A DNA stretch of 64,000 nt from Bacteroidota bacterium (GCA_007693555.1 REDJ01000063.1:9062-73061), one strand, 5' to 3'; positions 580 through 20,702 are shown, counted from the first letter of the stretch. Notes: a model not told the origin generated them from the sequence alone. Translations and numbers: made by a program.

Positions 580-1443
580 TTATTTCACATGCTTTTCTGC
601 CCTGTAGGAAGACCTTACCAGCGGGGCGCTTTCCACAAACCGAAATCCTTTCTTACGGGCTATTTCTCCATAACGGTCAAAATCTTCGGGAGTTACATAT
701 TTTTGCACCCTCAGATTACCTGCCGATGGCTGCAGATACTGCCCAATGGTCAGCACCTCGCATCCCACTGCAAGCAGGTCATCCATGGTTTCCAGGATTT
801 CTTCTTCAGTTTCACCCAGGCCCAGCATGATGCCGGATTTAATTCTGATACCTTTGGAGGCAACATATTTCAAAACCTCAAGACTATTTTCATATTTGGC
901 AAAGGTTCGCACCTGCGAAGTCAACCTTCTAACGGTTTCCAGGTTGTGGCTGATCACCTCCGGAGCAGCATCTATGACTTTTTGAATATCTTTCTCCCGT
1001 CCTTTAAAATCAGGGATAAGGGCTTCAATAGTTGTACCCGGGCATAATTGTTTTACTGCTCTTATGGTTTCGGCCCAGATTCCGGCTCCGCCATCGGGCA
1101 GGTCATCTCTGTCAACAGAGGTAATCACGCAATGCTTCACATTTGTCTTCCTGGCAGCCTCAGCCACTCTCATAGGCTCATGGGGATCAGGAGGCAGAGG
1201 CTTGCCGGTGGTAACATTGCAAAAGCCACAATTACGGGTGCAAATGTTTCCCAGGATCATAAATGTTGCTGTGCCCGCACTCCAGCATTCTCCCTTATTG
1301 GGGCATGCCCCGCTTTCGCAAATGGTATGCAGATGCTGTTCGTTTAAAACTCCTTTCATCTGGCTGTATTCGTCGGCAGACGGGAGTTTTATCCTGAGCC
1401 ATGAAGGTTTTTTTAAATAGGATGATGATTGATTTTTTTTCAA
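580..1443 (-). CDS. lipA: lipoyl synthase
   Basis: 287-aa ORF with the radical SAM motif CTRNCGFC, auxiliary-cluster cysteines CESGACPNKGEC and an N-terminal KPSWLRIKLP. The first codon is TTG and there is no plausible in-frame ATG nearby. Confidence 0.95.
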   Translation of the reverse strand: MKKNQSSSYLKKPSWLRIKLPSADEYSQMKGVLNEQHLHTICESGACPNKGECWSAGTATFMILGNICTRNCGFCNVTTGKPLPPDPHEPMRVAEAARKTNVKHCVITSVDRDDLPDGGAGIWAETIRAVKQLCPGTTIEALIPDFKGREKDIQKVIDAAPEVISHNLETVRRLTSQVRTFAKYENSLEVLKYVASKGIRIKSGIMLGLGETEEEILETMDDLLAVGCEVLTIGQYLQPSAGNLRVQKYVTPEDFDRYGEIARKKGFRFVESAPLVRSSYRAEKHVK

Positions 1444-1567
1444 AGTAAATCAGAGTAACAAATTCGTAAACTTACTGCATTTAAGACTGCAGTATGTTTA
1501 CAAAATTACAAAATTCAGAAAGCAATTTGACCTGAATAAGCAACAGAAAAGGTTAAAGTTTGCTATT

Positions 1568-3103: not shown

Positions 3104-3248
3104 AAGAATTGAATTTGATTGAGATTTGTATTTTGTTTTGGATTTTGATTTCAGTTTCTGAATACAAATATTTTAACAAATGTAAAGTTAGTACACTGAG
3201 AATAACAGAGGGACTTCAGCCCCATTGCCCTGAAATATCTCAGGTGAT

Positions 3249-6029
3249 CTATTTATTCAAAAAATCCCTCAGCACATAGTGCAGAATACCACCATGCTCG
3301 TAGTATTTCACTTCGATATTGGAATCGATGCGGGTTACAACTTCAAATTCTGTCTTCTTTCCGCTATCACCCTCGGCAAAAACTTTGAGTGTTTTTAAAG
3401 GTTGCAACCCATCAGATATTCCTGTAATGGTAAATTTTTCATGTCCGGTAAGACCCAGGCTCTGCGCATTTTCACCTTCTTTGTACTGTAAAGGAAGTAC
3501 ACCCATACCAATGAGATTGCTACGGTGTATCCTCTCGTAACTTTCAGCAATAACAGCTTTAATGCCCAGCAGGTTGGTTCCTTTTGCAGCCCAATCGCGG
3601 CTGCTTCCACTGCCATATTCTTTTCCTGCCAGCACTACCAGTGGCGTATTTTCCTTTTTGTATAACTGAGCAGCATGAAATACGCTCATGTGTTCGCCTG
3701 AGGGGATATGGGTGGTAAAACCTCCTTCGCGCTTTGCAACCTTGTTTTTAATTCGCACATTGGCAAAGGTACCTCTGATCATAACTTCATCATTACCCCT
3801 TCGCGAACCATAGGAATTAAAATGTTTGACCTCGACACCTTTGCTTATGAGGTATTCACCGGCAGGAGTATGTGCTGCAAAAGCACCTGCAGGAGAAATA
3901 TGATCGGTTGTAATACTGTCACCCAGCACCAAAAGAGCACGTGAATTTTCAATATCAACCGGAATAACAGGATTTTCACTTATATCCCTGAAAAACGGAG
4001 CTTCTTTAATGTAAGTAGATTTATCATCCCATTGATAAACCTGCTCACCGGGGACTTTCATGTTTTGCCATATCTCGTTGCCGTCGAATATTTCATTATA
4101 GTTTTTTTCGAAATCACCTCGCGAAAGTACCTTTCCCATGGTGTCCTGAATCTCTTCATGGCTGGGCCAGATATCTTTCAGATAAACAGGGTTGAGATTG
4201 GGATCATATGCCAACGGTTCATTTATCAGATCCACATCCACTCTGCCGGCTATGGCATATGCTACAACAAGTATGGGTGACATAAGAAAATTCATGCGTA
4301 CCTGAGGATGTACACGAGCCTCGAAATTCCTGTTTCCCGACAATACTGAGGCCACAACCAGTTCATTATCATCCACGGCCTTTGCAATATGTGGAGGTAA
4401 TGGTCCCGAATTGCCGATACAGCTTGTACAGCCATATCCCACTGTATGAAACTTCAGGGCTTCAAGATCTTCAAGCAAGCCGGATTTGGTAAGATAATCC
4501 GTTACTACTTTTGAACCCGGTGCCAGGGAAGTTTTCACCCATGGTTTCACATCCAATCCCAGTGCACGGGCTTTGCGTGCAAGAATCCCTGCCCCTATCA
4601 TTACTGACGGATTGGAAGTATTTGTGCATGAAGTGATGGCAGCAATAACCACCGAGCCGTCGCTTAACCTGAATCTTTCATTTTTAACAGTGATTTCAAC
4701 GGTTCTCAGTCCTGCTCCATTGGAAGCAGTTTCAACTTCCACATCGGCCGGAGTTTGCTTACCCTCCTGCTTTTGCCCTGTACTTCCTCCTTCACCGGTC
4801 CAGCGCTCCACTTCACGCTTATCAGGATCAATATACTCCCGCTTAAAATCTGATGCGAGCTGTGATTTGAAGGTTTCCTTGGCATTGCGAAGCAATATTT
4901 TATCCTGTGGCCTTTTGGGGCCTGCCAATGTGGGCTCGACGGTGTTCAAATCCAGTTCAAGCAATTGCGAGTATGTAATTTTTTCATTACCGGTACGCCA
5001 AAGCATATTGGCTTTGCAGTAATCTTCCACCAGCCTGATCTGCTCCTCAGAACGATTGCTGCTATGCATATAATCAAGGGTACGCTCGTCAATGGGAAAA
5101 TATGTAATTGTACAGCCAAATTCGGGCGACATGTTGGAGATAGTTGCCCTGTCAGGCACGGTAAGCCCATCAAGGCCTTCACCAAAAACTTCTACAAACT
5201 TTCCAACAACCCCTTGTGAGCGTAAAAGCTGTGTTATTGTAAGTACAAGATCAGTAGCTGTGGTGCCCAGAGGCAGTTTACCTGTAAGTTTCAGCCCAAT
5301 AACCTCGGGCATAATAAAGTAAATGGGTTGTCCTAAAAGGGCTGCTTCTGCTTCAATACCTCCCACACCCCAGCCAACAACACCAATACCGTTTACCATG
5401 GGTGTATGGCTGTCGGTACCAACCAGAGTATCGGGCAAAGCAACTCCATCGCGAACGGTAACACCACTGGCAAGGTATTCAAGATTTACCTGGTGGCATA
5501 TTCCCATGCCGGGAGGTACAACGGAAAAATTATCAAATGCCTTCTGCGCCCATTTCAAAAACTGGTATCTTTCACCGTTACGTTCATACTCCTTTTCAAC
5601 ATTTTTTTCATAAGAATACTGAGTACCAAAATAATCTACCTGTACGGAGTGGTCAATTACCAGGTCAACCGGCACCAAAGGATTGATTTTGGAAGCATCT
5701 TTACCCTTCCTGGCCATTTCTGCCCTCAGCGATGCAATATCGACAACGGCCGGTACACCTGTAAAATCCTGCATCAGTACACGTGCAGGTTTAAAAGGTA
5801 TATCCTTGTCCGAAGCTTCAGGCTTCCAGTCAAGCAAAGTATTGATGTTTTCTTCCGTTATAGCGAAACCATCAAAATTCCTTAATGCATTTTCGAGTAA
5901 AATACGAATGGAAAATGGAAGATGAGATACCTTCATTCCCTGTTCTTCAAGTTTTTTCAAACTGTAAAAGGTGAATTCTCCCATTTGGGTTGATAAGCGA
6001 TCCTGGATGTTGAAAGGTAATTTAGTCAT
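3249..6029 (-). CDS. acnA: aconitate hydratase, AcnA/IRP type
   Basis: About 926 aa with LPFSIRILLEN near the N-terminus, cluster cysteines in ITSCTNTSNP and GYGCTSCIGNSG, and the swivel-domain motif GKEYGSGSSRDWAAKG. I prefer ATG at 6029 (MTKLPFN) over the track's TTG at 6044. Confidence 0.95.
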   Translation of the reverse strand: MTKLPFNIQDRLSTQMGEFTFYSLKKLEEQGMKVSHLPFSIRILLENALRNFDGFAITEENINTLLDWKPEASDKDIPFKPARVLMQDFTGVPAVVDIASLRAEMARKGKDASKINPLVPVDLVIDHSVQVDYFGTQYSYEKNVEKEYERNGERYQFLKWAQKAFDNFSVVPPGMGICHQVNLEYLASGVTVRDGVALPDTLVGTDSHTPMVNGIGVVGWGVGGIEAEAALLGQPIYFIMPEVIGLKLTGKLPLGTTATDLVLTITQLLRSQGVVGKFVEVFGEGLDGLTVPDRATISNMSPEFGCTITYFPIDERTLDYMHSSNRSEEQIRLVEDYCKANMLWRTGNEKITYSQLLELDLNTVEPTLAGPKRPQDKILLRNAKETFKSQLASDFKREYIDPDKREVERWTGEGGSTGQKQEGKQTPADVEVETASNGAGLRTVEITVKNERFRLSDGSVVIAAITSCTNTSNPSVMIGAGILARKARALGLDVKPWVKTSLAPGSKVVTDYLTKSGLLEDLEALKFHTVGYGCTSCIGNSGPLPPHIAKAVDDNELVVASVLSGNRNFEARVHPQVRMNFLMSPILVVAYAIAGRVDVDLINEPLAYDPNLNPVYLKDIWPSHEEIQDTMGKVLSRGDFEKNYNEIFDGNEIWQNMKVPGEQVYQWDDKSTYIKEAPFFRDISENPVIPVDIENSRALLVLGDSITTDHISPAGAFAAHTPAGEYLISKGVEVKHFNSYGSRRGNDEVMIRGTFANVRIKNKVAKREGGFTTHIPSGEHMSVFHAAQLYKKENTPLVVLAGKEYGSGSSRDWAAKGTNLLGIKAVIAESYERIHRSNLIGMGVLPLQYKEGENAQSLGLTGHEKFTITGISDGLQPLKTLKVFAEGDSGKKTEFEVVTRIDSNIEVKYYEHGGILHYVLRDFLNK

Positions 6030-6092
6030 AACAATGAAATTCAAGATTTAACAAAACAGTAATATTTTTTTGGATTTGCACCGGAATATTTT

Positions 6093-7415
6093 TTAAAGAT
6101 CAAGCTTGATCTTACCCTCTGCCACATCTTTATACCATTGCAAAGGATAAGATGTAGGCCTTTCAATAGGTAAAACGAATACCCTGTCGAAAAGCAGAGA
6201 TGCCATTACCCCCAGTGCTCTTGAAATACCAAACATAACCGTATAAAACTGGTGTTCCTTAATGCCATAATATCTCAATAATGTACCGCTGAATGCATCC
6301 ACATTGGGCCATGGGTTTTTCACCTTACCTGTGGCTTCAAGTAAAGGTGGAACAACTTTGTAAAGTTTATTTACAATATTTACCAGGTTGTCCTCTTTGA
6401 TGAATTTATCTGCAAATTCTTTCTGAGCATCATACCTTGGATCAGTTATTCGCAGCACGGCATGACCATAGCCGGGAATTACCCCGCCACCATCCAAAAA
6501 CTTCTTTACATATCTCTGGATTTTTTGTTCAGAGGGATTTTCATCATTAAGTTCACGCATCATATCAAAAATCCAGGTCAATACGTTTTGATTGGCAAAA
6601 CCATGCAACGGACCAGCCAGTCCAAGCATACCTGCAGCATAGGCATAATAAGGATTTGACAAAGTAGAACCCACCAAATGTGTAGCATGTGCAGATACAT
6701 TCCCACCTTCATGATCTGCATGAATACTTAAATAAAGCCGCATAAGTCTTTTGTGCGGAGGAGCACTAAACCCCATCATATGTGCAAAGTTACCGGCCCA
6801 GTCGAGCCGTGGATCAGGATCAATATGTTCACCTTTATGGAAAGAGCGCCTGTAAATATAGGCTGCAATACGGGGTAATCGTGCAATGAGATTCATTACA
6901 TCTTCGTATGTGGAATCCCAGTAAAATTTTTTATGAACTCCTGCCTGGTGAGCGTTCAGGAAATAAGAATCAGATGCCATACTGGTAATAGCCGCCACAA
7001 ATTGTGCCATGGGTCTGGCATTTTTGGGCATGGCTTCAATAACATCAAATACATGCTGGGGAACTACTGCTCTGCTGGCCCAGTCTTTACTGAGGTTGCT
7101 GATATCCTCGAGCTCAGGTACTTCACCAATGAGCATCAGGTAAAACAAGCCTTCCGGTAAGGGTTCTCCATGCTCGCACAAGCGGGGGATGGTTTTTCTC
7201 AGTTCCTTTAATGAGACCCCTCTGAAGCGAATACCTTCGTTGGGATCAAGCTTTGATGTTTCGGTGAGAAGGCTGGGAATGCCTTTCATTCCGGTCAATA
7301 CATGACCAATTGTAACTTTTCCAACAACTACGTCCGAATGCTCTTTTTTGAGTTTAAGAAATTCATCGTATTTTTTCAGGGCGGATTCGTAAAATCTGTT
7401 CTTTATGTATTCCAT
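6093..7415 (-). CDS. gltA: citrate synthase
   Basis: 440 aa with citrate synthase signatures HADHEGGNVSAH and GYGHAVLRITDPR. It is flanked by acnA and icd on the same strand. Confidence 0.93.
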   Translation of the reverse strand: MEYIKNRFYESALKKYDEFLKLKKEHSDVVVGKVTIGHVLTGMKGIPSLLTETSKLDPNEGIRFRGVSLKELRKTIPRLCEHGEPLPEGLFYLMLIGEVPELEDISNLSKDWASRAVVPQHVFDVIEAMPKNARPMAQFVAAITSMASDSYFLNAHQAGVHKKFYWDSTYEDVMNLIARLPRIAAYIYRRSFHKGEHIDPDPRLDWAGNFAHMMGFSAPPHKRLMRLYLSIHADHEGGNVSAHATHLVGSTLSNPYYAYAAGMLGLAGPLHGFANQNVLTWIFDMMRELNDENPSEQKIQRYVKKFLDGGGVIPGYGHAVLRITDPRYDAQKEFADKFIKEDNLVNIVNKLYKVVPPLLEATGKVKNPWPNVDAFSGTLLRYYGIKEHQFYTVMFGISRALGVMASLLFDRVFVLPIERPTSYPLQWYKDVAEGKIKLDL

Positions 7416-7447
7416 GTTTTGATGTTTAAATATTTTTCACTTGTTTG

Positions 7448-8683
7448 TCATCCTTCAACCAGCTTCTTCTTCAAATTGGCATCAATAACCTCCAGAAATT
7501 CACTTGTAGTAAGGTAATGCTCCGGTTTCATTGCACTACCATGAATAAGCAATGCGAGGTCTTTGGTCATATTTCCGTTTTCAACCGTTTCAATGCAAAC
7601 GCTCTCAAGTGTTTCTGCAAAACGTATCAATTCATAGTTATCATCAAGTTTTCCGCGAAAAGCGAGGCCTCTTGTCCAGGCAAAAATACTGGCAATAGGA
7701 TTTGTAGAAGTGGGTTTTCCCTGTTGATGCATACGGTAGTGCCGGGTTACAGTGCCATGTGCCGCTTCAGCCTCCATAGTTTTACCGTCGGGTGTTACCA
7801 ATGTAGAGGTCATTAATCCCAGTGAACCAAAACCCTGCGCTACAGTATCGCTTTGCACATCACCATCATAGTTTTTACAGGCCCATACAAAACCACCCTC
7901 CCACTTCAATGCTGCGGCAACCATATCGTCAATAAGACGATGCTCATAGGTAATGCCGGCAGCTTCAAATTTAGCTTTGAATTCCGCTTCAAAAATCTCC
8001 TGGAAAATATCCTTAAACCTTCCATCATATTTTTTCAAAATAGTATTTTTTGTGGAGAGGTAAAGCGGCCATTTCTTAAGCAAAGCCTGATTCATGCATG
8101 CACGGGCAAACCCGGAGATGGATTCGTCGGTATTATACATGCTAAGAGCTACACCGTCGCCTTCAAACTGATAAACTTCATGGGAAATTTCCTGTGAGCC
8201 ATCATCCGGTGTAAAAGTTATGGTTAATTTGCCCGGGCCCTTTGTAACAAAATCCGTTGCCCTGTATTGATCGCCAAAGGCATGACGGCCTATGCATATG
8301 GGTTTTGTCCACCCGGGAACCAATCGGGGTATATTTGAAATAAGAATAGGCTCACGAAACACAGTGCCTCCCAGAATATTTCTGATTGTTCCATTGGGTG
8401 AGCGCCACATGTTTTTCAGTCCGAATTCTTCTACCCTTGCTTCATCGGGAGTAATGGTAGCACATTTGATTCCTACACCATACTTTTTAATGGCATGAGC
8501 TGCATCAATGGTAACCTGGTCATCCGTTTTATCACGGTATTCAATACCCAAATCGTAATATTTTACTTCCAGTTCAAGATAAGGAAAAATCAGCTTTTCT
8601 TTGATAAACTTCCAGATGATGCGCGTCATTTCATCACCATCCAATTCAACTACAGGGTTTTGTACAACTATTTTTTTCATCAT
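7448..8683 (-). CDS. icd: NADP-dependent isocitrate dehydrogenase, eukaryote-like homodimeric type
   Basis: 411 aa, collinear with IDH1/2-type enzymes: [40 protein letters not shown]. Confidence 0.95.
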
Positions 8684-9132
8684 TTTCTTAAAATTCTATC
8701 AACTATATTTGGGTTAATAATTTACTAAATATCAATACCTTGCATTTGAAAGCCGGTATGAAAAAACTTCACTTTTTTAAAAAACAAAAAGGAAGTTAAC
8801 AAAAATAAAATGAAAGCAGGTTTTCCTTAATCAAGTAAAATTAATATTTTTAACAACAAAACCCATTGAAGGTTTGCACAAATTCGGCAAAAATATCAAT
8901 ATGTTTAGATAAGATGAATAAATTCAAAAAGTCCGGTCCATATTGAGGTATGTGAGAAATTTGCAGGCTTGCGGTGTAAATTGTAGTCATAATTTTTAAT
9001 GCATAAACGCATTGAAAATTTTCGATAAAAATACTTTAAGAAAAATAATAATTCTTACCTTGAGTTTTTTTTAGAGATTTCTTATTTGACATAGGAAATG
9101 AGGCTTAAATAACTTTATATTATTTTTAAAAT

Positions 9133-9309
9133 ATGAAAAGACTCAGAAAAACTCCAAACCGCATGATATTTGGCGTATGCGGTGCTTTGGGAGAATATTT
9201 TAATGTGGATCCCACCATTTTTCGTATTGCATTTGCAGTAGCCGCTATTGTTTATGGAACAGGTATTCTGGTTTATCTCATACTTGCCATTGCAATACCT
9301 TCCCAATAA
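9133..9309 (+). CDS. PspC-domain small membrane protein
   Basis: 58-aa ORF, below the track cutoff: MKRLRKTPNRMIFGVCGALGEYFNVDPTIFRIAFAVAAIVYGTGILVYLILAIAIPSQ. This matches the PspC-domain pattern (R..r.i.GVc.GlaeYf.vDpt..R..f) followed by one TM helix. Confidence 0.8.
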   Translation: MKRLRKTPNRMIFGVCGALGEYFNVDPTIFRIAFAVAAIVYGTGILVYLILAIAIPSQ

Positions 9310-9317
9310 AAACGAAT

Positions 9318-9815
9318 ATGGATTTGTTTCTGCTTATATTGGCTTTTATTCTTCTGCTGGCAGGTGTTATTGGAGCATTTATACCGATACTGCCGGGTCC
9401 TCCCCTGAGTTTTGCAGGGATGTTGCTGATCCACTTTACAAGCCTTACGGATTTCTCAGGTCGCATACTTCTCACATTCGGAATAATTACACTGCTCATT
9501 ACAATTGCCGACTATTTGTTACCCATCTGGGGCACGCGCCTGGGTAAAGGAACCAGGCATGGTATGTTTGGAGCTACAATTGGACTGATAATCGGCATTT
9601 TTTTCTTTCCACCCTTCGGTATTTTGATTGGCCCGATTGCGGGTGCATGGTTGGCTGAGCGTGTCAATGGAAAAAACAACGAAGATGCTCTCAGGTCGGC
9701 AATAGGTAGCTTTTTCGGGCTCTTATTGGGTGTGGTGCTGAAATTTACGGTTTCTGTTGCAATTATCTGGTATGTACTGTATGGATTGTTTGTGTCAGTA
9801 TCTGCTAGCAGTTGA
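9318..9815 (+). CDS. DUF456-like integral membrane protein
   Basis: 165 aa with four hydrophobic segments. The motif LPGPPLSF...DYLLPIWGTRLGKGTRHG...GPIAGAWLAE resembles the DUF456 family. It starts 9 nt after the PspC-domain gene. Confidence 0.6.
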   Translation: MDLFLLILAFILLLAGVIGAFIPILPGPPLSFAGMLLIHFTSLTDFSGRILLTFGIITLLITIADYLLPIWGTRLGKGTRHGMFGATIGLIIGIFFFPPFGILIGPIAGAWLAERVNGKNNEDALRSAIGSFFGLLLGVVLKFTVSVAIIWYVLYGLFVSVSASS

Positions 9816-9875
9816 TTTTATCAGAAAAAAAATTCTAACTTTGCAAATACATATACACATAGGTAAATAAATCTT

Positions 9876-10517
9876 ATGATATCTGAAAATTTTACCCTGG
9901 CAATATCTCAAAGATACGATGAACTCTCCGGTCAGGAGTGTTGTCTGTCCTGCGGGGGTGCCATAAACTATGCCGATATAAAACCTGGTTTTCGTTGTGC
10001 CGACCTGGGTTCGGGTAAAGGTTATGATGTAATGAAAATGGCCACCATGGCAGGTGAAGAGGGCTTTGCATGGGGAGTGGATGTATCTGAATCCATGATG
10101 GAAACTGCACGTGAAAATGCCCGAAAACTCAATCTTAAAAATACGGATTTCATAAAAAGTGAACTTGAAGATATTAAACTTGACAATAACACACTTGATG
10201 TGGTTCTTTCCAATTGTACCATCAATCACAGTCTGAACCAGGGAAAGGTGTGGAAGGAAATTTACAGAACTCTAAAGCCGGGTGGAGTTTTCGTTGTAAG
10301 TGATATTTTTGCAATGGAAAAGGTTCCCGCAGCATTCCGTAACAATCCGCACTATGTTGCAGAATGCTGGGCAGGTGCTGTAACCAGAAACGAATATTTT
10401 AAAAACCTGGAGAAAGCAGGTTTCAAAAAGGTTGAAATTTTGGAGGAATCGGCTCCCTACGAAAAAGGAAAAATTAAAGTTTGCAGTTTTACAATCAAAG
10501 GAAATAAACCCTTTTAA
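9876..10517 (+). CDS. class I SAM-dependent methyltransferase, ArsM-like (short form)
   Basis: 213 aa with the SAM-binding motif ADLGSGKGYDV, preceded by the cysteine cluster ECCLSCGG. It also has AECWAGAV, a pattern reminiscent of arsenite methyltransferases. Confidence 0.75.
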   Translation: MISENFTLAISQRYDELSGQECCLSCGGAINYADIKPGFRCADLGSGKGYDVMKMATMAGEEGFAWGVDVSESMMETARENARKLNLKNTDFIKSELEDIKLDNNTLDVVLSNCTINHSLNQGKVWKEIYRTLKPGGVFVVSDIFAMEKVPAAFRNNPHYVAECWAGAVTRNEYFKNLEKAGFKKVEILEESAPYEKGKIKVCSFTIKGNKPF

Positions 10518-10582
10518 TTTTTGTATATTGCAACAAAAAACAATAAAAGACGATTATTAAGTTAAACTTCGATTACAAATGT

Positions 10583-10639
10583 AACTTACATGAGCAACGT
10601 GCTTACAATAGAAAATGGATAAGTTCATTCATGTAAGTT
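10583..10639 (+). promoter_or_regulatory. 11-bp perfect inverted repeat (aacttacatga / tcatgtaagtt) with a 35-nt spacer, inside a cluster of AAGTT/AACTT pentamers upstream of the small Cys-peptide ORF
   Basis: Read directly. Arms are at 10583..10593 and 10629..10639. AAGTT or its complement AACTT occurs at 10559, 10565, 10583, 10621 and 10635. Confidence 0.4.
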
Positions 10640-10650
10640 CCATCAGTCCA

Positions 10651-10779
10651 ATGAACAAACTAAATTATTTTCTGATGAAAACTCTTGTAAAAAAAGCACA
10701 AAAGAAAGTTAAAACCGACAAAAAACAAGCACAATGCTGTGCCAAACTATCGCCAAATCAGGTAGGTTGCCACGATTAA
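10651..10779 (+). CDS. candidate RiPP precursor peptide (Lys-rich leader, Cys-containing C-terminus)
   Basis: Not in the track (<60 aa). Sequence is MNKLNYFLMKTLVKKAQKKVKTDKKQAQCCAKLSPNQVGCHD, with stop at 10777..10779. In-frame alternative starts are at 10615 (54 aa) and 10675 (34 aa). It ends 36 nt before the radical SAM/SPASM gene on the same strand. Confidence 0.5.
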   Translation: MNKLNYFLMKTLVKKAQKKVKTDKKQAQCCAKLSPNQVGCHD

Positions 10780-10815
10780 ACCATTTTCACATTTCCGGAT
10801 AATTCACCAACTGTA

Positions 10816-12123
10816 ATGCTTAAACCTTCCAGGCACAACATCATTGCACCTTTAAAAGAAGGTAAGGAATACATTATTGTTAATATTTTATCCGGAAATG
10901 CTGATATCCTTTCCGGAGAGGAGCTCGCATTTCTTAATCATCCCAATGAGGGGAATTACCCTAATGAATTTATTGAAAAAGGCTATGTTGCTGACCCGCA
11001 GAAAGAAGATCTCGATTATCGTCTGAAGTATATCGAGTTTCTTGAAGAACGGGAAAAGGAGGAAATGCAACTGTTTTTCGTACCCACCTATGCATGTAAT
11101 TTCACCTGCTCCTATTGCTATCAAAGTGGTTACCCTGATAAAAATCTTTCTTTTTCAAGAGAAGTTACGGATGCCTTCTTTGATTTTATCGGGCAACAAT
11201 TCGCCCACAGAAAAAAATATATCACCCTTTTTGGTGGTGAACCGCTTCTGAGCTCCCAATCCTACAAGGAAAGTCTGTCTTATTTCATTGAAAAGACCGT
11301 AGCTCGTAAACTGGATATTGCTATAGTTACCAATGGTTATTTCCTGGAAGAGTACCTTGATATCCTTGTTCCTGGCAGCACACGCGAAATACAAATCACC
11401 CTGGACGGTACACGCGATATGCACAACCGCCGCAGGAAACTAAAAAACAACAGTCCTACCTTCGACAAAATTGTTGAAAACATTGATGCCTGCCTGCAAA
11501 AACAAATTCCTGTAAATCTGCGCATGGTGGTGGACCGGGAAAATATGGATGATCTGCCGGCCCTTGCAGATTTTGCCATTGAAAAAGGCTGGGCAGACCA
11601 TCCCCTGTTCAAAACCCAGATAGGCAGAAATTACGAATTGCATTATTGTCAGAATGGAAAATCCCAGCTTTTTAACCGGCTCTCACTATATCAGGAGTTA
11701 CTGGGATTGATAAAAAAACATCCTCAGATTGTCCGTTTTCACAAGCCTGCATTTTCAGTAATGAAATTTTTGCAGGAAAATGGTGAGTTGCCCAAGCCCC
11801 TTTTTGATGCATGCCCGGCCTGCAAAAGTGAATGGGCCATGGATTATACAGGAAGTATTTACTCATGCACTGCCACAGTTGGCAAACCCGGCGAAAAACT
11901 GGGAACTTTCCACCCGAAAGTTGAGTTATTCGATGAGAAAATCAAAAACTGGCAGCAGCGCGATATCATGCACATTGAAGATTGCCGCAATTGTAACCTG
12001 CAACTGATCTGTGGCGGAGGCTGCGGCTCCATTGCTTTCAACCAGAACCAAAACATTCTGTCACCCGACTGCCGACCCATCGGAGAGCTTATCAGCCTGG
12101 GAGCAGAAGCTTATTTCAAGTAA
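10816..12123 (+). CDS. radical SAM/SPASM-domain enzyme (peptide-maturase-like)
   Basis: 435 aa with CX3CX2C at YACNFTCSYCYQ. It has the full SPASM pattern CX9GX4C (CKSEWAMDYTGSIYSC), then CX2CX5CX3C (CRNCNLQLICGGGC), then a distal Cys (SPDC). An N-terminal extension of about 85 aa (SRHNIIAPLKEGKEYIIVNILSGNADILSGEE) looks like those of sactisynthase/ranthipeptide-type maturases. Confidence 0.85.
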   Translation: MLKPSRHNIIAPLKEGKEYIIVNILSGNADILSGEELAFLNHPNEGNYPNEFIEKGYVADPQKEDLDYRLKYIEFLEEREKEEMQLFFVPTYACNFTCSYCYQSGYPDKNLSFSREVTDAFFDFIGQQFAHRKKYITLFGGEPLLSSQSYKESLSYFIEKTVARKLDIAIVTNGYFLEEYLDILVPGSTREIQITLDGTRDMHNRRRKLKNNSPTFDKIVENIDACLQKQIPVNLRMVVDRENMDDLPALADFAIEKGWADHPLFKTQIGRNYELHYCQNGKSQLFNRLSLYQELLGLIKKHPQIVRFHKPAFSVMKFLQENGELPKPLFDACPACKSEWAMDYTGSIYSCTATVGKPGEKLGTFHPKVELFDEKIKNWQQRDIMHIEDCRNCNLQLICGGGCGSIAFNQNQNILSPDCRPIGELISLGAEAYFK

Positions 12124-12148
12124 CCGCTGAGACGGAGAAACGCGGAGT

Positions 12149-12228
12149 TTTCTCCGGGTACGACTCCGGTTCGTGCCCGGAGTTATTTGGGATTTCTCCG
12201 GGTACGACTCCGGTTCGTGCCCGGAGTT
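12149..12228 (+). repeat. two identical 36-nt copies (44-bp period) of a hairpin-forming element directly after the rSAM stop
   Basis: tttctccgggtacgactccggttcgtgcccggagtt occurs at 12149..12184 and 12193..12228. Each copy folds as ctccgggtacga / tcgtgcccggag, a 12-bp stem with one G-U pair. Confidence 0.85.
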
Positions 12229-12480
12229 TAGAGTTTAAGGGATTGCATCCCTCCAATCAATCCTGATATCTGATACCTGGCTGCAACAAGCTGTTTTTTA
12301 TTAGGCAACCCAGCGGGGTTGTCAGGGATGCCATCCCAGTCCGTTGGGTTTTCAATTTCCGGTTTTGATATTAGCAGCACTGGCGGGACTCTTAGCTCGT
12401 TTGGCTTTTTTACATCTCCCTAACCCCGTTGACTTCGTCGAACCCTTCGGGTTTCAAAAGGGGGAGTTGGCCGACAATTA

Positions 12481-12522
12481 CTTCCGTCTTCGGACTTCGT
12501 ACTTCGGTCTTCAGTCTTCAGT
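12481..12522 (+). repeat. heptanucleotide tandem repeat (CTTCNGN) x6
   Basis: Read directly: cttccgt cttcgga cttcgta cttcggt cttcagt cttcagt. Confidence 0.85.
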
Positions 12523-12649
12523 ATTACCCTGTTTTAACCAGATGAACAAGAACGAAAATTTTTTCAATTGTTTATTCCCGTTAGTTGCTCTTATTGCAGG
12601 TAGATGTTTTTTTACTAATTTTGGCAGCCGGGAAAGAGGGGCATTGCCT

Positions 12650-12680
12650 GGTTGAACAATATCTCAACCGGTCTTTTTTT
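12650..12680 (+). terminator. candidate rho-independent terminator
   Basis: Stem ggttga / tcaacc (extendable with a bulge), 8-nt loop, followed by gtcttttttt. Confidence 0.5.
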
Positions 12681-12695
12681 ATCTCAGATACCGTG

Positions 12696-13247
12696 ATGAA
12701 TACCATGATGATAGCTTACAATTATATATCAGGACTCTTTTTGGGAAAAAGGTTATTACTCGTTATCCTGCTTCCGGTTTTACTCATTTCATGTCTGAAC
12801 GAGGAGTTATGTGAGGATGTGGAAACAGTGCCGGTAAGAATTGGTTTTTATGCTGTAATTGAAAACGAGGAAGAGCCCGTTAACCTGATTGTAGACAGTT
12901 TAAAAGTGCATGGGCTTGGGAAAGATTCACTTATTTACAATTACCAGCGAAATATCAGCAGGATAGAATTGCCGCTAAACTCCAGCGCAGATAGCTCCGC
13001 ATTTATACTCTATTTTCCGGCGCCCCCGGAATTTTCTCATCTGGCAAAAGATACAATCTGGTTTTACTATGAAGTTTTACCTACACTGATTTCAATGGAA
13101 TGCGGGTTCGTTAGTTTTTTTGAGCTGAAAGAGGTAAAACATAGCCGGATGTTTATTGATAGTATTTTCATAGAAGAAGTTTCTGTAACCAACATATTGG
13201 ATGAACACATCAAGATTTTTCCTTTTATTGACGATGGTGACAATTAG
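12696..13247 (+). CDS. hypothetical lipoprotein
   Basis: In-frame ATG at 12696 gives MNTMMIAYNYISGLFLGKRLLLVILLPVLLISC with a lipobox (LISC). The upstream part of the track ORF (from 12585) crosses the terminator-like hairpin. I cannot assign a family by eye. Confidence 0.6.
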   Translation: MNTMMIAYNYISGLFLGKRLLLVILLPVLLISCLNEELCEDVETVPVRIGFYAVIENEEEPVNLIVDSLKVHGLGKDSLIYNYQRNISRIELPLNSSADSSAFILYFPAPPEFSHLAKDTIWFYYEVLPTLISMECGFVSFFELKEVKHSRMFIDSIFIEEVSVTNILDEHIKIFPFIDDGDN

Positions 13248-13885: not shown

Positions 13886-15220
13886 CTATTTCCCGGTTGC
13901 CTTAATATATTCCAGCAAAATATTGTTGAGTTCTGAAAGTTTGAATTCGGATTCTTTGAGTTTCTCATTGATTTGACCCAATTCCATGTTTTTTTCTTCA
14001 ATGGTCTGGTAGGCTTTCTGAGCATCATCTCTTGCAGCCTCAAGTTCTTCTATCAATTCCTTTATCTGTGAAATATCCCTGAAGATGCAAAACCAGCCAT
14101 TCATATCGTCTTCTGAAGAATTTTGTTGCAAAGAGGCCGTCATTTGAAGCTGTTTCTTTTGCGAGGATTTTGTCCGGATGCTGATTTCCCTTGAAATTTT
14201 TTCACCAGGTTTGATTTTTCTAAAGCTTTCCATGAGGTTTTCCATCTCTCCGGTTCCGGTAACAAACTCAGAAAAGTTTTTGTCGGTCAGCTCATCTGTT
14301 TCAAAAATCTCTTTCATTGCCTCGTTGCAAAACACGATATCATAGGTCATATCAATTACTGCAATACCCTCACCCAGGTTTTCTATCAGGTTTCGCAGTT
14401 TATCCTCCTGGTCTGCCAGCCTGGCAGCCATTTTTTTGATTTCAGAAATATTCTCACCCACCAGGACATAGGAATTCACAGTACCATTTTCATCCAGAAC
14501 CGGGCTCAGACTTCCGTATAGCCAGATTTTTTCTTCATCTTTACTTTCAATGGAATATTCTCCCCGCCACAAAACAGGGCTGCCATTTTCAAGCACATCT
14601 TTAAAGCCCTGGTTTTGCCTTGTATTAAAAATGGAATCAAAGGATTTTGCAGAGCCGTTTCCTATAATTTCTTCGTATTGAAAACCGGTAATATCGGTAA
14701 AACGGGAATTCATGTAATTAATACGTAGGTCCCTGTCCGTAATTACCACAATGCTCTGACTTTGCTCTATTGCGCTATGAAGCCTGGAGATGGTTTGCCA
14801 CTGGCTCTTAAGCTTTCGCTCCATAAGAATATGACTGGCAACCTTGGTTAATGCCTGTAATAATTTCTCATTATTTACCGGCTTAAGCACATATTCATTT
14901 ATTCCGATATCAATAGCTTTTATTAAAAAATTTGTATCGGTATAAGAACTTGTGATGATAATTTTTACATCGGGATTTATCTGTTTTATTTGCCGGCTCA
15001 TTTCCATTCCATCCATACCGGGCATCCTGATATCGGTTAGGACAATGTCAGGTTTTTCATCCTGGTAAAACTTCATACCTTCCGAACCATCTCTTGCAAC
15101 AGTAATATTATTAAAATATACTGTAAGATAATCCAGTACACTATCCCTTATACCGGAATCATCTTCAACATACAAAACTTTTATATTATCAAATATTTCC
15201 TGAGATGACTGATTTTTCAT
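13886..15220 (-). CDS. response regulator with receiver domain, two PAS domains and a C-terminal coiled coil (no recognisable output domain)
   Basis: REC motifs VLYVEDD and DIVLTDIRMPGMDGME are followed by PAS-like segments (ITGFQYEEIIG..., EGIAVIDMTYDIVFCNEA). The tail is heptad-like (IEELEAARDDAQKAYQTIEEKNMELGQINEKLKESE). ATG at 15220 is preferred to the track's TTG at 15229. Confidence 0.85.
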   Translation of the reverse strand: MKNQSSQEIFDNIKVLYVEDDSGIRDSVLDYLTVYFNNITVARDGSEGMKFYQDEKPDIVLTDIRMPGMDGMEMSRQIKQINPDVKIIITSSYTDTNFLIKAIDIGINEYVLKPVNNEKLLQALTKVASHILMERKLKSQWQTISRLHSAIEQSQSIVVITDRDLRINYMNSRFTDITGFQYEEIIGNGSAKSFDSIFNTRQNQGFKDVLENGSPVLWRGEYSIESKDEEKIWLYGSLSPVLDENGTVNSYVLVGENISEIKKMAARLADQEDKLRNLIENLGEGIAVIDMTYDIVFCNEAMKEIFETDELTDKNFSEFVTGTGEMENLMESFRKIKPGEKISREISIRTKSSQKKQLQMTASLQQNSSEDDMNGWFCIFRDISQIKELIEELEAARDDAQKAYQTIEEKNMELGQINEKLKESEFKLSELNNILLEYIKATGK

Positions 15221-15636
15221 CCGAAACAAATTAGTAGATCTTCATAGGCAATCGTTTTTCCTTAAAAATATTCCTACCCCAATGCCATGACGATATAAAA
15301 ATACATTGAAAGCAATTATTGCCTCCTGCAATTACCAGAACTTTCACTTATAAACAATATTCGTAGAAACCCGTAAAATTGAATATATTATTTCCCCGAA
15401 ATAACACAGCATTTATCGATTTTATTACCGGCCTTATCTGAATAAGTAAGATAACATCATTAAACAGATTTCGAAAAAAGTTATTAACACCTCCACTGCA
15501 ACCCTCTACCTACTGATTTGCTGCACTTTACAAGTACAATATCGATGAAGTTAATTATTTTTTTGTTTTATAAACCCGTATTTTCATCTCCAAAAAGAAG
15601 TTTTTTTATTTTTGAATACCACAAACACCGAGAATC

Positions 15637-16824
15637 TTGAATAAAACAATAAAACGTATCACACTGTCATGCATTCTTGTGTTATGCAATTTGATGTATC
15701 CTGTTTCCGCATCAGAAGGGCATTCATATTTTACGTTTTCCCATGGGTATTTACAACCAAACCTCAATATGCCTCCGGTTTCATATTCCCAGGATATACA
15801 GGTTAAAAATTCCGATAATTTTTTCCTTCATTCGTCATTTTATACGTATGAATACTCCACATTAAGTAATCATGCTCAACTAAGTATAATTCCGGATATT
15901 GACCGTTACCTGATATTTTTGCAGATTTTGCCAAAAGATAATCCCGGAATACTGCCATGGATAGTGCTTATTTTGGTATTTACAATTATTAGTATTATAG
16001 CTTTCAGGATTTTAAATCAACAAACTTTCAAAAGAAAAAAATATCTGGAAGCGAAGATTAAAAAACGAACCCGGGAGATTGTCAGAAAACAAAAGGAGAT
16101 TGAATCCGAAAAAGAAAGATCAGATGCTTTACTAAGAAATATATTGCCTGCAAAAATTGCTTCAGAACTCAAGCTTAACGGAAAGGTAAAAGTACAATAT
16201 TATGATCTGGCCAGTGTTTTATTTATAGATTTCAAGGATTTTTCCAGGTTTTCTCAGTTTTTGAATCCGATGGTGCTTATCAATGAATTAAACAAAAATT
16301 TTTGCGAATTTGATGATATTACGGAGAAACATCGTTTGGAGAAAATAAAAACCATTGGTGACGCGTATATGTGTGCAGGAGGTATTCCGGAACCAAATCT
16401 GACCAACCCTTTTGATGCCATACTTGCTGCTTTTGAAATTTTGAATTATCTTAATAAAGCTGAAGATGATCAATGGCTGTGCAATGTAAGAATTGGTATT
16501 CATACAGGAGAAATACTGGCCGGAGTGATTGGCAAAAACAAATTTGCCTACGATATCTGGGGGGAGGCGGTCAACACAGCAAGCCGAATGGAAAGTTCAG
16601 GAGAAGCCGGTAAAATAAATATATCGGGAGAAACACAAGCTTTGGTTGCTGATTTCTTTGATTTTGAATACAGGGGAAAGCTGGAAGCAAAACACAGAAA
16701 TGAGTTTGATATGTATTTTGTTAACCGGATAAAAAAACCTTACAGTAAAGATGAAAACGGAACTATACCAAATGAACTTTTCTGGAAAAAGGTTAATTGT
16801 CATATAAATAAAGTTGCTATCTGA
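15637..16824 (+). CDS. membrane-anchored class III adenylate cyclase
   Basis: 395 aa with an N-terminal signal-like segment, a predicted extracytoplasmic region, one TM (ILPWIVLILVFTIISIIAF) and a coiled coil. The cyclase domain has metal-binding Asp residues (FIDFKDF, KTIGDAYM) and FAYDIWGEAVNTASRMES. Lys (KTIGD) and Asp (YDIWG) indicate ATP specificity. The start codon is TTG. Confidence 0.88.
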   Translation: MNKTIKRITLSCILVLCNLMYPVSASEGHSYFTFSHGYLQPNLNMPPVSYSQDIQVKNSDNFFLHSSFYTYEYSTLSNHAQLSIIPDIDRYLIFLQILPKDNPGILPWIVLILVFTIISIIAFRILNQQTFKRKKYLEAKIKKRTREIVRKQKEIESEKERSDALLRNILPAKIASELKLNGKVKVQYYDLASVLFIDFKDFSRFSQFLNPMVLINELNKNFCEFDDITEKHRLEKIKTIGDAYMCAGGIPEPNLTNPFDAILAAFEILNYLNKAEDDQWLCNVRIGIHTGEILAGVIGKNKFAYDIWGEAVNTASRMESSGEAGKINISGETQALVADFFDFEYRGKLEAKHRNEFDMYFVNRIKKPYSKDENGTIPNELFWKKVNCHINKVAI

Positions 16825-16960
16825 TTATCAGCTATGGCTTATTGACTGAAATCCGGTTATCAGAAAAAAATAAAAAAAATAGTCATAAATAGCTATATAG
16901 TAAGATTCATTATACTTAAATTTGACCCTTAATTAATAACCTGGTTTAATTACATCAATT

Positions 16961-17596
16961 ATGAATTTAAAATCAGTTAAATCAGTAGTTTTAGGCAAGC
17001 TTAAAAAAGAACTTAAGCCAAGTTTATATTATCATAACTACCAGCATACCCTCGATGTGTGTGAGTCGGTTGACCGTTTGGCAGAAATGGAGAATATTAA
17101 CGGGCAGGACTTGTTGTTATTGCAAACGGCTGCATTGTTTCATGATACAGGTTTTATCTGGAGATATGAAAACAATGAAGAACTTGCTTGTGAGTACAGC
17201 CGGGAAATACTGCCTGGATTTGAATATAAAGACAAACATATCGATCGCATATGCAGCATGATAATGGCTACACAGATTCCCCAAAAACCAGAGGATAAGA
17301 TGGGAATGATTCTATGTGATGCAGACCTTGACTATATCGGTAGAGGAGATTTTTTTATTACAGCTCTCAGACTTCACAGAGAATGGAGTGAAAACAGCAA
17401 TCAGAAAATCACTTTTAAAAACTGGTATTTGAAGCAACAAAGCTTTATTCTCCAGCACGATTACTTTACCGAATCAGCAAAAAATTTGCGCGACAACACC
17501 AAACAACACAATTTATCACAGGTAAAAGAATTGCTTAACCTGCTGGATTCAACCACAGCCGAAACGGTAGGTTCATTGTCAAGTGCACTGAAATAA
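16961..17596 (+). CDS. HD-domain metal-dependent phosphohydrolase
   Basis: 211 aa with YHNYQHTLDV, AALFHDTGF and CDADLDYIG, the H...HD...D pattern. Confidence 0.8.
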   Translation: MNLKSVKSVVLGKLKKELKPSLYYHNYQHTLDVCESVDRLAEMENINGQDLLLLQTAALFHDTGFIWRYENNEELACEYSREILPGFEYKDKHIDRICSMIMATQIPQKPEDKMGMILCDADLDYIGRGDFFITALRLHREWSENSNQKITFKNWYLKQQSFILQHDYFTESAKNLRDNTKQHNLSQVKELLNLLDSTTAETVGSLSSALK

Positions 17597-17700
17597 TAAG
17601 TAATACAAAAATGTTTTGTTTAACTTTTTTTCGTACATTGGCCTGTTTTTTTAACTTTAAATCCCAATAAACCTTGCAACACAACAAATAACCCCAGAAA

Positions 17701-18552
17701 ATGGAAAATGAAAACAACAATGTAATCCTTGTTGCATACGATTTTACAAGCATAGGAGACATTGCCATCGAGAATGCCATTCAAATGGCAAAGGTTCTGA
17801 GTTATAAAATAAATTTGCTTCATGTAATTAATAAAACCACCAAAAGTGATTTAAAAAAGAGCAATCAGCCCCTGGAATCTATTTCAGAAAAACTGAAGGT
17901 TTTAACTGAAAAAATAAAAAGCGAACACAATATAGATGCGGATTATACGGCACGCGATGGTAGCATTTTCACAACCATAGCTGATGAAAGTAAAAGGATA
18001 GGTGCAAACTTCCTGGTTTTTGGCACCCATGGTAAGAGAGGGATACAATTCCTGCTTGGAAGTTTTGCAGTAAAACTCATCAAGAGTTGTCCTGTACCTG
18101 TCTTTGTGGTGCAAAAACCTGCCAATCAATCTACTTTTAAAGACATTATTTTTCCCCTTGACCTTCAACCCGGCTCAAAGCAAAAAGTAAAATGGGCCAT
18201 TGCACTACATAAACAATTCAATTGCAGATTCCATATTTTCGCTGACTCATACCCTGACGAATATATTCAAAACCGGTTGAGAGCCGACCTGAAACAGATA
18301 AAAAAGATCCTGGAGAAACACAATATTGAATATACAGAGAACCACTCTGGTTCAAAAAATAAATTTGCAATGCAAATTATTTCATTCGCGCATAAAACCA
18401 ATGCCGATATGATCATGATCTCCACTGACCCTGATAAAATTACCTGGAGCCTTTGGGGCTCAATGGATGAGAGGATTATTTATAATAATAAGAAAATACC
18501 GGTATTGTGTATAAATGCGCAGGATTTAAGGGTAATTATCGGTGGATTATAA
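17701..18552 (+). CDS. tandem universal stress protein (UspA family)
   Basis: 283 aa with two Usp-like halves. The first has the ATP-binding-type motif VFGTHGKRGIQFLLGSFAVKLI. Confidence 0.8.
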   Translation: MENENNNVILVAYDFTSIGDIAIENAIQMAKVLSYKINLLHVINKTTKSDLKKSNQPLESISEKLKVLTEKIKSEHNIDADYTARDGSIFTTIADESKRIGANFLVFGTHGKRGIQFLLGSFAVKLIKSCPVPVFVVQKPANQSTFKDIIFPLDLQPGSKQKVKWAIALHKQFNCRFHIFADSYPDEYIQNRLRADLKQIKKILEKHNIEYTENHSGSKNKFAMQIISFAHKTNADMIMISTDPDKITWSLWGSMDERIIYNNKKIPVLCINAQDLRVIIGGL

Positions 18553-18584
18553 ATATTAAGGAATACAAAATAAACTATAAATAA

Positions 18585-20702
<2,118 letters not shown>

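Follow-up and report, generated by a model that had tools for sequence, protein, structure and literature searches.

A short three-cysteine peptide gene recurs between an ArsM-type methyltransferase and a putative radical SAM/SPASM maturase in anaerobic Bacteroidota

We find that a small unannotated gene encoding a 34-residue peptide with three cysteines lies between a gene for an arsenic-methylase-like enzyme and a gene for a radical SAM/SPASM enzyme of the peptide-maturase type, and that this trio recurs with an invariant peptide core in about 200 loci from anaerobic Bacteroidota and a few other lineages. The locus was examined within a 64,000-nt stretch of DNA from a Bacteroidota bacterium (GCA_007693555.1 REDJ01000063.1:9062-73061), hereafter called the window. 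A preliminary description of this region had proposed that a small cysteine-containing ORF and the radical SAM gene that follows it form a candidate RiPP precursor-maturase pair. Our analysis confirms the sequence features on which that proposal was based and supports its interpretation, although modification of the peptide by the enzyme, and the chemistry involved, remain inferences.

A conserved peptide gene upstream of the radical SAM gene

The small ORF occupies positions 10615..10779 (+), with in-frame ATG codons at 10615, 10651 and 10675 and a TAA stop codon at 10777-10779, and is separated by 36 nt from the ATG of the 435-aa ORF at 10816..12123 (+). The preliminary description left all three start codons open. 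However, only the ATG at 10675 is conserved, and the peptide gene is therefore assigned to 10675..10779 (+), encoding MKTLVKKAQKKVKTDKKQAQCCAKLSPNQVGCHD. The upstream portion, 10615..10674 (+), falls in an insertion of roughly 70 nt that is absent from the two closest relatives and that also carries a 15-nt inverted repeat (10579-10593 / 10629-10643), and it is probably untranslated leader RNA.

To examine whether the ORF is conserved, we inspected 81 loci that had been selected only through the radical SAM protein. In 81 of 81 of these loci, an ORF of 30-37 aa lies just upstream. The encoded peptides share an N-terminal MK(S/T)L(I/V)KK motif, a Lys-rich spacer of variable length, and a C-terminal core, AQCCAK-x6-GCHD, in which ten residues are invariant. 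At these ten codons, the mean pairwise difference is 0.49 at third positions and 0.0 at first and second positions, such that variation is purely synonymous. The core corresponds to 10729..10776 (+) in the window, where it reads AQCCAKLSPNQVGCHD, and a stop codon follows directly in 200 core occurrences (189 distinct sequences) that matched a pattern requiring it. The preceding leader-like part (10675..10728, +) is conserved at positions 1-7. Across all loci, 173 distinct peptides of 30-48 residues were collected, whose leaders are 31% Lys with a median net charge of +5.

The association also holds when searched from the peptide side. A degenerate DNA pattern for QCCAK-x6-GCHD occurs once in the window and in 0 of 100 shuffled versions, and a DNA search for the core alone recovered 120 metagenome loci. 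The radical SAM gene lies directly downstream in 84 of 104 testable cases, and the methyltransferase gene lies upstream in 92 of 103. Interestingly, a high-GC subfamily keeps the peptide, both enzymes and a thioredoxin/thioredoxin-reductase (Trx-TrxR) fusion in a different order, with the radical SAM gene on the opposite strand. A few loci carry the methyltransferase and peptide genes with no radical SAM gene within several kilobases.

The peptide is largely invisible to existing annotation. Gene callers often miss it, and scans of three peptide variants against Pfam and NCBIfam at E<=10 gave no hit, in agreement with the earlier statement that the core motif was not recognized as any named family. 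Only eight unnamed entries of 33-34 residues were found in a database of 5.8 billion proteins. None of the papers found by full-text literature searches describes this gene arrangement, and a survey of Bacteroidales RiPPs (PMC10352776) concerns other clusters. An Rfam scan of positions 9000-13000 gave only a chance-level hit, so no RNA family explains the region.

A radical SAM/SPASM enzyme resembling peptide maturases

The protein encoded at 10816..12123 (+) matches the Pfam Radical_SAM domain (PF04055) with 77.5 bits against a cut-off of 29.5, and carries a CX3CX2C motif (C94, C98 and C101; 11095..11118, +) that is invariant in 120 homologues and corresponds to the site binding the radical SAM [4Fe-4S] cluster. 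SPASM-type auxiliary-cluster cysteines are encoded at 11647..12072 (+), comprising C336-x9-G346-x4-C351, C390-x2-C393-x5-C399-x3-C403, and C419, together with the additional cysteines C278 and C333. Eight of these nine cysteines are invariant, and C336 is at least 90% conserved. The Pfam SPASM model itself gave no hit at E<=0.01, and this assignment rests on the motif, on alignment with the SPASM domain of CteB and on a predicted fold.

In a confident structural model of the enzyme (pLDDT 92.3), residues 1-85 (10816..11070, +) form a separate domain with strands at 9-14, 18-23 and 28-33 followed by helices at 34-41, 50-55 and 61-81. This predicted topology is RRE-like, and the CefB, TIGR04463 and FlmE/OhkG HMMs align from residues 2-8 onward. 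No sequence match to PqqD/RRE or any other Pfam domain was detected in residues 1-90, however, and the RRE-like assignment relies on the predicted fold and on alignment to CteB.

The best-scoring NCBIfam models are RiPP maturases aligned over the full length of the protein, although none is matched above its cut-off, and thus the chemistry cannot be transferred from a characterized relative. The highest scores are those of CefB (NF038107; 180.2 bits against 600) and TIGR04463 (152 against 525), both bioinformatically defined maturases of Cys-rich peptides that are apparently uncharacterized themselves. The CC-x9-C spacing of the peptide differs from the Cys at every fifth residue of the CefA/CefB system. 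Clo7bot scores 128 bits, below its cut-off. PapB (NF047865; 127.6 bits against 340) and QhpD (62 against 453) probably link a Cys sulfur to a side-chain carbon of an acidic residue, and the core studied here ends in C-H-D with invariant Cys and Asp. Nevertheless, PapB substrates carry repeated CX3D motifs, whereas the present peptide has a single C-x-D at its extreme C-terminus, and QhpD acts on an enzyme subunit.

The closest solved structure is CteB (PDB 5wgg, 5why), the maturase of the SCIFF/ranthipeptide system, both by sequence (8e-15, or 2.9e-20 with a profile) and by fold, where Foldseek ranks it first at 7.5e-18. The two share a three-part architecture of an RRE-type N-domain (predicted here), a radical SAM core and a SPASM domain, and CteB likewise has a small Cys-containing peptide encoded next to it. 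Identity is only 17-18%, though, and the SCIFF maturase model (TIGR03974) scores 89.4 bits against a cut-off of 425. The peptide has three Cys in a 16-residue core rather than six in about 45 residues, and matches no SCIFF model (TIGR03973). SCIFF loci also appear to lack the methyltransferase and Trx-TrxR partners described below.

We considered whether the enzyme might instead be a non-peptide enzyme such as an anaerobic sulfatase maturase, with the small ORF a chance reading frame. The sulfatase maturase anSME is a significant fold and sequence relative, and the C-C-A-K of the core loosely resembles the C-x-A/P-x-R motif of sulfatases. However, the arginine of that motif is absent, no sulfatase gene is nearby, and the anSME model (TIGR03942) scores 78.6 bits against a cut-off of 349.45, with an alignment starting at residue 92 (about residue 91 across anSME models) and omitting the N-domain. 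Alignment to CteB spans 459-485 columns, against about 375 for sulfatase maturase, which has no such domain. This alternative is very unlikely and is already contradicted by the presence of the ORF, under clear purifying selection, in 81 of 81 loci.

Linked methyltransferase and Trx-TrxR genes

The preliminary description treated the peptide and the radical SAM enzyme as a pair, and missed two partners. The first is an ArsM-type SAM-dependent methyltransferase of 213 residues (9876..10517, +), which is as tightly linked to the peptide as the radical SAM enzyme is. Its gene lies upstream of the peptide gene on the same strand in 76 of 81 enzyme-selected loci and in 172 of 202 loci overall, as compared with 169 of 202 for the radical SAM gene. 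The second is a Trx-TrxR fusion, supported by Pfam, that is encoded downstream in 136 of 202 loci. This fusion is absent from the present window, as are the DUF302 and DUF1847 partners. In one locus, the order is MarR, methyltransferase, peptide, radical SAM enzyme and Trx-TrxR, with overlapping stops and starts.

The methyltransferase resembles ArsM by HMM, sequence and predicted fold. Its best PDB sequence hits are CrArsM (5evj; 2e-24) and CmArsM (ArsM/AS3MT structures include 5evj, 4fs8 and 8xt7), and the top 11 fold matches to its model (pLDDT 92.5) are all ArsM structures. Six cysteines (C22, C23, C26, C41, C114 and C164) are invariant. Among these, C26 (LSCGG), C114 (SNCTIN) and C164 (ECWAG) align with the As(III)-binding and catalytic Cys72, Cys174 and Cys224 of CmArsM, and are invariant in 72 and in 65 homologues in two separate comparisons. 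Nonetheless, the protein is a short form that covers only positions 60-233 of the 272-position arsenite methyltransferase model (NF008823 / PRK11873) and scores 176 bits against its cut-off of 263. A reading as a carboxyl methylase resembling LahSB (PDB 6uak), which methylates the C-terminal carboxylate of a lanthipeptide (PMC11285071), is not excluded. The sequence similarity is significant (8e-15) and the peptide has an invariant C-terminal Asp. LahSB ranks well behind ArsM in sequence, however, is absent from the top 50 fold matches, and aligns only after the CCLSC motif.

Many members of this methyltransferase group are annotated by JGI as arsenite methyltransferase. Surveys of arsM in sediments, paddy soils and digesters may therefore count genes whose real job is tied to this peptide, which bears on the known puzzle that anaerobes carrying functional ArsM often do not methylate arsenic (bioRxiv 10.1101/2022.01.25.477449).

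Inferred function and genomic setting

We consider it probable that these genes constitute an undescribed, widely conserved RiPP-type cassette of three or four genes. In this view, the three genes are co-transcribed, the MK(S/T)L(I/V)KK motif docks on the RRE-like domain, and the flexible Lys-rich spacer allows the core to reach the active site. The 5′-deoxyadenosyl radical would then abstract a hydrogen from a core residue, and a cysteine sulfur, possibly held on auxiliary cluster I, would close a thioether ring, as in enzymes of the CteB, PapB and QhpD type. This is the most likely chemistry, although it is unproven. The methyltransferase would subsequently act on or together with the thiol-bearing core, while the Trx-TrxR fusion would keep the cysteines of the peptide or the methyltransferase reduced. 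Some observations fit this scheme less well. Of 173 leaders, 28 carry extra Cys, 22 of them as CC pairs, and one peptide duplicates AQCCA, which fits a thiol-ligand role for CC better than a pure leader that is discarded. Likewise, a simple peptide O- or S-methylase would not need the As(III)-ligand cysteines of ArsM.

These features raise the possibility that the peptide is a tri-thiol carrier or scaffold for As(III), or for Sb, Se or Te, on which the ArsM-type enzyme methylates the bound metalloid and Trx-TrxR recycles the catalytic disulfide, as thioredoxin does for ArsM/AS3MT. The radical SAM enzyme would either pre-organize the peptide by a crosslink or form a carbon-metalloid bond. As(III) is typically bound by three thiolates, as with Cys12, Cys13 and Cys18 of ArsD, ArsM seems to prefer thiol-bound As and to need thioredoxin, and the peptide offers a CC pair plus a third Cys. 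Moreover, the methyltransferase has an invariant CC pair, and many of its homologues end in Cys-rich tails such as CCCC. Radical SAM and ArsM pairs are known for arsinothricin (ArsL/ArsM) and probably for arsenosugars (ArsS/ArsM), and models NF040538 and NF038099 give weak hits, but ArsL and ArsS are probably not SPASM/RRE enzymes and no peptide appears to be involved in those pathways, whereas the peptide is the most conserved element here. We regard the metalloid reading as less likely. No arsR, acr3/arsB or arsC family emerged from the neighbor clustering of 202 loci, which was not aimed at these genes, the invariance of the non-Cys core residues (A, Q, A, K, G, H and D) exceeds what a simple ligand needs, and no known SPASM/RRE enzyme handles a metalloid.

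The genomic setting argues for a role inside the cell. As the preliminary description noted for the window, no protease or exporter gene is adjacent, and none is conserved among the neighbors of 202 loci. The cassette is embedded among TCA-cycle and other housekeeping genes. Together with invariance of the core across phyla, these observations suggest that the product most likely works in intracellular thiol, redox or metalloid chemistry. A classical secreted ranthipeptide or sactipeptide antibiotic or signal, with protease and exporter encoded elsewhere, is thus unlikely, even though the closest enzymes make thioether RiPPs and the peptide has a leader-and-core layout with a cationic N-terminal part. 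No immunity gene is conserved, there is no conserved cleavage motif between leader and core, and antagonistic peptides usually diversify.

Core invariance across phyla, housekeeping surroundings and the absence of export genes are typical of cofactor precursors, and place the system with the rare radical SAM peptides that serve the cell itself, such as those of PQQ, mycofactocin and perhaps SCIFF. By analogy with PQQ (PqqA/PqqE/PqqD) and mycofactocin (MftA/MftC/MftB), which appear to employ a radical SAM/SPASM enzyme with an RRE on a short peptide with invariant critical residues, the enzyme might modify the C-terminal GCHD, for example by a Cys-His or Cys-Asp link. A small redox-active product would then be released, methylated, and kept reduced by the dedicated Trx-TrxR. 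This alternative appears doubtful, as no conserved peptidase and no consumer enzyme family, such as a cofactor-using dehydrogenase, was found among the neighbors. In addition, MftC and PqqE are not among the 25 best NCBIfam hits, although the PqqE structure 6c8v is a distant fold match (3.5e-7).

More speculatively, the peptide may be not just a crosslinked RiPP but the working thiol scaffold of a new kind of pathway. It might be a ribosomally made metalloid carrier, which would represent a third radical SAM and ArsM pairing and the first to involve a peptide, or the precursor of a thiol or redox cofactor with its own reductase, in anaerobes that probably lack glutathione. In either case, part of what metagenomic surveys of anoxic habitats count as arsM would belong to this system. 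The radical SAM protein has more than 4,000 database clusters at E<=1e-10, although this count includes other radical SAM/SPASM families.

With regard to expression of the unit, two identical 31-nt GC-rich hairpin units, present in exactly two copies in the window, follow the stop codon of the radical SAM gene at 12152..12226 (+). The first unit scores as terminator-like, and no terminator-like site on the + strand lies between the methyltransferase gene and the end of the radical SAM gene, so the hairpins likely mark the end of the transcription unit. No common promoter motif was found upstream of the peptide gene across 177 loci, with the Bacteroidetes-type TAnnTTTG occurring in only 15. In the window, the peptide and radical SAM genes share a reading frame, separated by one TAA and 12 sense codons, but the spacing in relatives is not a multiple of three, and this arrangement was treated as chance.

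The small ORF and the adjacent radical SAM/SPASM enzyme

The + strand carries three consecutive genes: a 213-aa ORF at 9876-10517, a small ORF ending at 10779, and a 435-aa ORF at 10816-12123. The small ORF has in-frame ATGs at 10615, 10651, and 10675, and from the last of these it encodes MKTLVKKAQKKVKTDKKQAQCCAKLSPNQVGCHD, with its stop lying 36 nt before the next ATG. The 435-aa protein contains C94-x3-C98-x2-C101 together with the SPASM pattern C336-x9-G346-x4-C351, followed by C390-x2-C393-x5-C399-x3-C403 and then C419. Every sequence statement made in the preliminary description, which had noted a Cys-containing small ORF 36 nt upstream of a complete radical SAM/SPASM enzyme, is correct.

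To classify the enzyme, we compared it with curated domain and protein family models. Pfam identifies Radical_SAM and Fer4_12, whereas NCBIfam returns 75 hits, the best of which are all peptide maturases: CefB at 180 bits (aligned over residues 3-434), TIGR04463 at 152, Clo7bot at 128, PapB at 128, and FlmE/OhkG at 106. All of these scores are far below the respective cut-offs, and anaerobic sulfatase maturase scores only 79 bits against a cut-off of 349. The closest solved structure by sequence is that of the SCIFF maturase CteB (8e-15, or 2.9e-20 with a 120-sequence profile). An AlphaFold model built on 120 homologues is confident (pLDDT 92.3, pTM 0.90), and Foldseek ranks CteB first (7.5e-18) in an alignment spanning 459-485 columns, which thus includes the N-domain, whereas the sulfatase maturase aligns over about 375 columns. 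In the model, residues 1-85 fold as three strands followed by three helices, the topology of RiPP recognition elements (RRE), although sequence alone does not detect such a domain. Eight auxiliary-cluster cysteines are invariant and one is nearly invariant among the 120 homologues. The RRE and SPASM assignments rest on predicted structure, motifs, and alignment to CteB rather than on domain-model hits. Taken together, the protein is a radical SAM/SPASM enzyme of the peptide-maturase type that belongs to no curated family.

The enzyme family is large, with more than 4,000 database clusters at E<=1e-10, although that count includes other radical SAM/SPASM families; the 120 best hits are 55-90% identical to the window protein. 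In all 80 loci selected only through the enzyme, and in the window, a 30-37 aa ORF lies just upstream on the same strand and ends in AQCCAK-x6-GCHD-stop. Across these 81 loci there are 76 distinct nucleotide versions of the core. At the ten invariant residues, the mean pairwise difference is 0.49 at third codon positions and 0.0 at first and second positions, and all four Ala codons and both Ser codon families are used, revealing purifying selection on a protein. The N-terminus is also conserved as MK(S/T)L(I/V)KK and is followed by a spacer of variable length with 31% Lys. Of the three possible starts that had been proposed, only the ATG at 10675 is conserved, as the two upstream ATGs lie in a roughly 70-nt stretch that is absent from the closest relatives. 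No Rfam family covers the region.

Searching from the peptide core

We next performed the reverse test, in which metagenome contigs were searched with a degenerate DNA pattern for QCCAK-x6-GCHD that matches once in the window and never in shuffled sequences. A stop codon follows the core in every locus recovered, the enzyme lies directly downstream in 84 of the 104 loci with room for it, and the homologue of the 213-aa protein lies upstream in 92 of 103. Because these loci were chosen by the motif, invariance within them is partly circular, and the conservation statistics that matter are those from the 81 enzyme-selected loci.

Most of the apparent exceptions represent a high-GC subfamily (including metagenome loci L156, L169, L177, L193, and L108) with peptides such as one that begins with MKLLTK, carries a second CC pair (KACCAPEK), and ends in GCHD. 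In this subfamily the order is methyltransferase, peptide, thioredoxin/thioredoxin-reductase fusion (Trx-TrxR), and a possibly NYN-like gene, with the radical SAM enzyme (about 40% identical) located a few kb away on the opposite strand. The module has therefore been rearranged but kept together outside Bacteroidota. A few loci, among them metagenome loci L102 (8501-10076) and L152 (8659-14624), have methyltransferase plus peptide and no enzyme in the DNA available. Judged by eye, without a family scan, their neighbors resemble a TrmO-like protein, DUF1847, and a second methyltransferase in L102, and HdrA-like and SQR-like flavoproteins in L152, which hint at sulfur or disulfide metabolism. 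Additionally, one metagenome-assembled genome carries at least three copies of the peptide gene on two contigs (L068 and L069), including L068 3-98 and 3495-3596; two are near-identical cassette copies with a thioredoxin gene upstream instead of the methyltransferase. The taxon labels of some metagenome bins (Spirochaetota, Hyphomicrobiales, Syntrophomonadaceae) may reflect binning errors.

Linked genes and inferred chemistry

The protein encoded upstream of the peptide is an ArsM-type methyltransferase. It scores 176 bits against NF008823, below the cut-off of 263, and its best PDB hits are CrArsM (2e-24) and CmArsM. Its predicted structure (pLDDT 92.5) has ArsM structures as its first 11 fold matches and human AS3MT at rank 13. 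Residues C26, C114, and C164 align with CmArsM Cys72, Cys174, and Cys224, and together with C22, C23, and C41 they are invariant in homologues. Many homologues, including most of those outside the window's clade, end in Cys-rich tails (CCCC, CGCG, SCC, CGCHN), whereas the window's protein ends in KGNKPF without such a tail. Members of this peptide-linked family are annotated by JGI as 'arsenite methyltransferase' or 'UbiE' and by NCBI as 'methyltransferase domain-containing protein', and thus metagenomic arsM counts from anoxic habitats may include them.

Clustering of all ORFs around the peptide in 202 loci revealed the methyltransferase in 172, the radical SAM enzyme in 169, and a thioredoxin domain fused to a thioredoxin-reductase-like flavoprotein (about 420 aa) in 136. 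Less frequent neighbors are a divergent IS1595-like zinc-ribbon protein (37 loci), DUF302 (32), DUF1847 (15), rhodanese (13), a Crp/Fnr regulator (11), an SQR/NDH-like flavoprotein (10), and a MarR regulator (7). No protease, ABC exporter, or ars resistance family appears among the clusters, although the clustering was not aimed at ars genes. In a 4.9-Mb chromosome (locus L201), the order is MarR, methyltransferase, uncalled peptide, enzyme, and Trx-TrxR, with overlapping stops and starts.

These data establish a real peptide gene that is tightly linked to a maturase-type radical SAM/SPASM enzyme, equally tightly linked to an ArsM-type methyltransferase, and frequently linked to a dedicated disulfide reductase. 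On computational grounds, we infer that the N-terminal motif docks on the RRE-like domain and that the core is modified by radical chemistry. A Cys-derived thioether is the most likely, though unproven, product, given the closest relatives (CteB, PapB, QhpD) and the invariant cysteines. What the methyltransferase does is open. It could methylate the peptide, for which the C-terminal carboxyl methylase LahSB and the Cys S-methylase PtyS represent RiPP precedents (PMC11285071). However, its retention of the ArsM arsenic-ligand cysteines suggests thiol-bound metalloid chemistry with the peptide as carrier, as do the CC...C arrangement of the peptide, the linked Trx-TrxR, and the extra CC pairs in some leaders. 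Specifically, 28 of 173 distinct leaders carry extra Cys, 22 of them as CC pairs and 6 with a CxC motif, and one peptide (MKTLIKKKSAAQCCATAQCCAKISSIVAGCHD, from locus L173) duplicates the AQCCA motif, observations that a purely disposable leader does not explain. All ten non-variable core residues are invariant, not only the cysteines, which argues that several enzymes read the core, whereas the lack of export genes and the cross-phylum invariance argue for an intracellular role.

A radical SAM/SPASM enzyme with an adjacent precursor is a well-known kind of system. In contrast, we found no Pfam or NCBIfam model, no name in the protein database, and no paper in the literature searched that covers the peptide or this gene combination, and the family, its core motif, and its fixed partnership with an ArsM-type methyltransferase and a Trx-TrxR appear to be new. 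It is possible, albeit unlikely, that the system represents something more unusual, namely a peptide-based metalloid pathway or a peptide-derived thiol cofactor.

Genomic surroundings and intergenic features of the window

The window's own clade lacks the Trx-TrxR gene nearby and instead has DUF6452 and DUF6048 lipoprotein-like genes downstream. The wider flanks are core metabolism and signaling genes. Upstream (580-8683, - strand) are lipoyl synthase, aldehyde dehydrogenase, aconitase, citrate synthase, and isocitrate dehydrogenase, and downstream (13886-20702) are a response regulator with PAS domains, an adenylate/guanylate cyclase, an HD protein, a universal stress protein, and NAD-dependent DNA ligase. 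This is not a mobile island or a typical biosynthetic cluster.

On the + strand, no terminator-like site lies between the methyltransferase gene and the end of the enzyme gene. Just after the enzyme's stop, two identical 31-nt GC-rich hairpin units (CTCCGGGTACGACTCCGGTTCGTGCCCGGAG) lie in tandem, 13 nt apart, at 12152-12182 and 12196-12226. These are the only two copies in the window, and the first scores as terminator-like; the pair could be a duplicated terminator or a small repeat element. In the spacer between the methyltransferase and the peptide, a 15-nt inverted repeat (10579-10593 / 10629-10643), 93% complementary with 35 nt between the arms, sits inside the roughly 70-nt stretch that the closest relatives (loci L001 and L002) lack and that creates the two non-conserved upstream ATGs. 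This repeat may be an operator, an RNA hairpin, or a remnant of a small insertion. The sequence TTTTTGTATATTGCAA, directly after the methyltransferase stop (10516-10533), is conserved in the window, L001, and L002, and approximately in loci L003 and L006, and it may be a promoter or operator for the peptide gene, although no motif common to all 177 loci examined was found. Finally, the peptide and enzyme ORFs (10675-12123) are in the same reading frame, separated by one TAA and 12 sense codons; the spacing in relatives is not a multiple of three, and thus this arrangement looks accidental rather than a read-through design.
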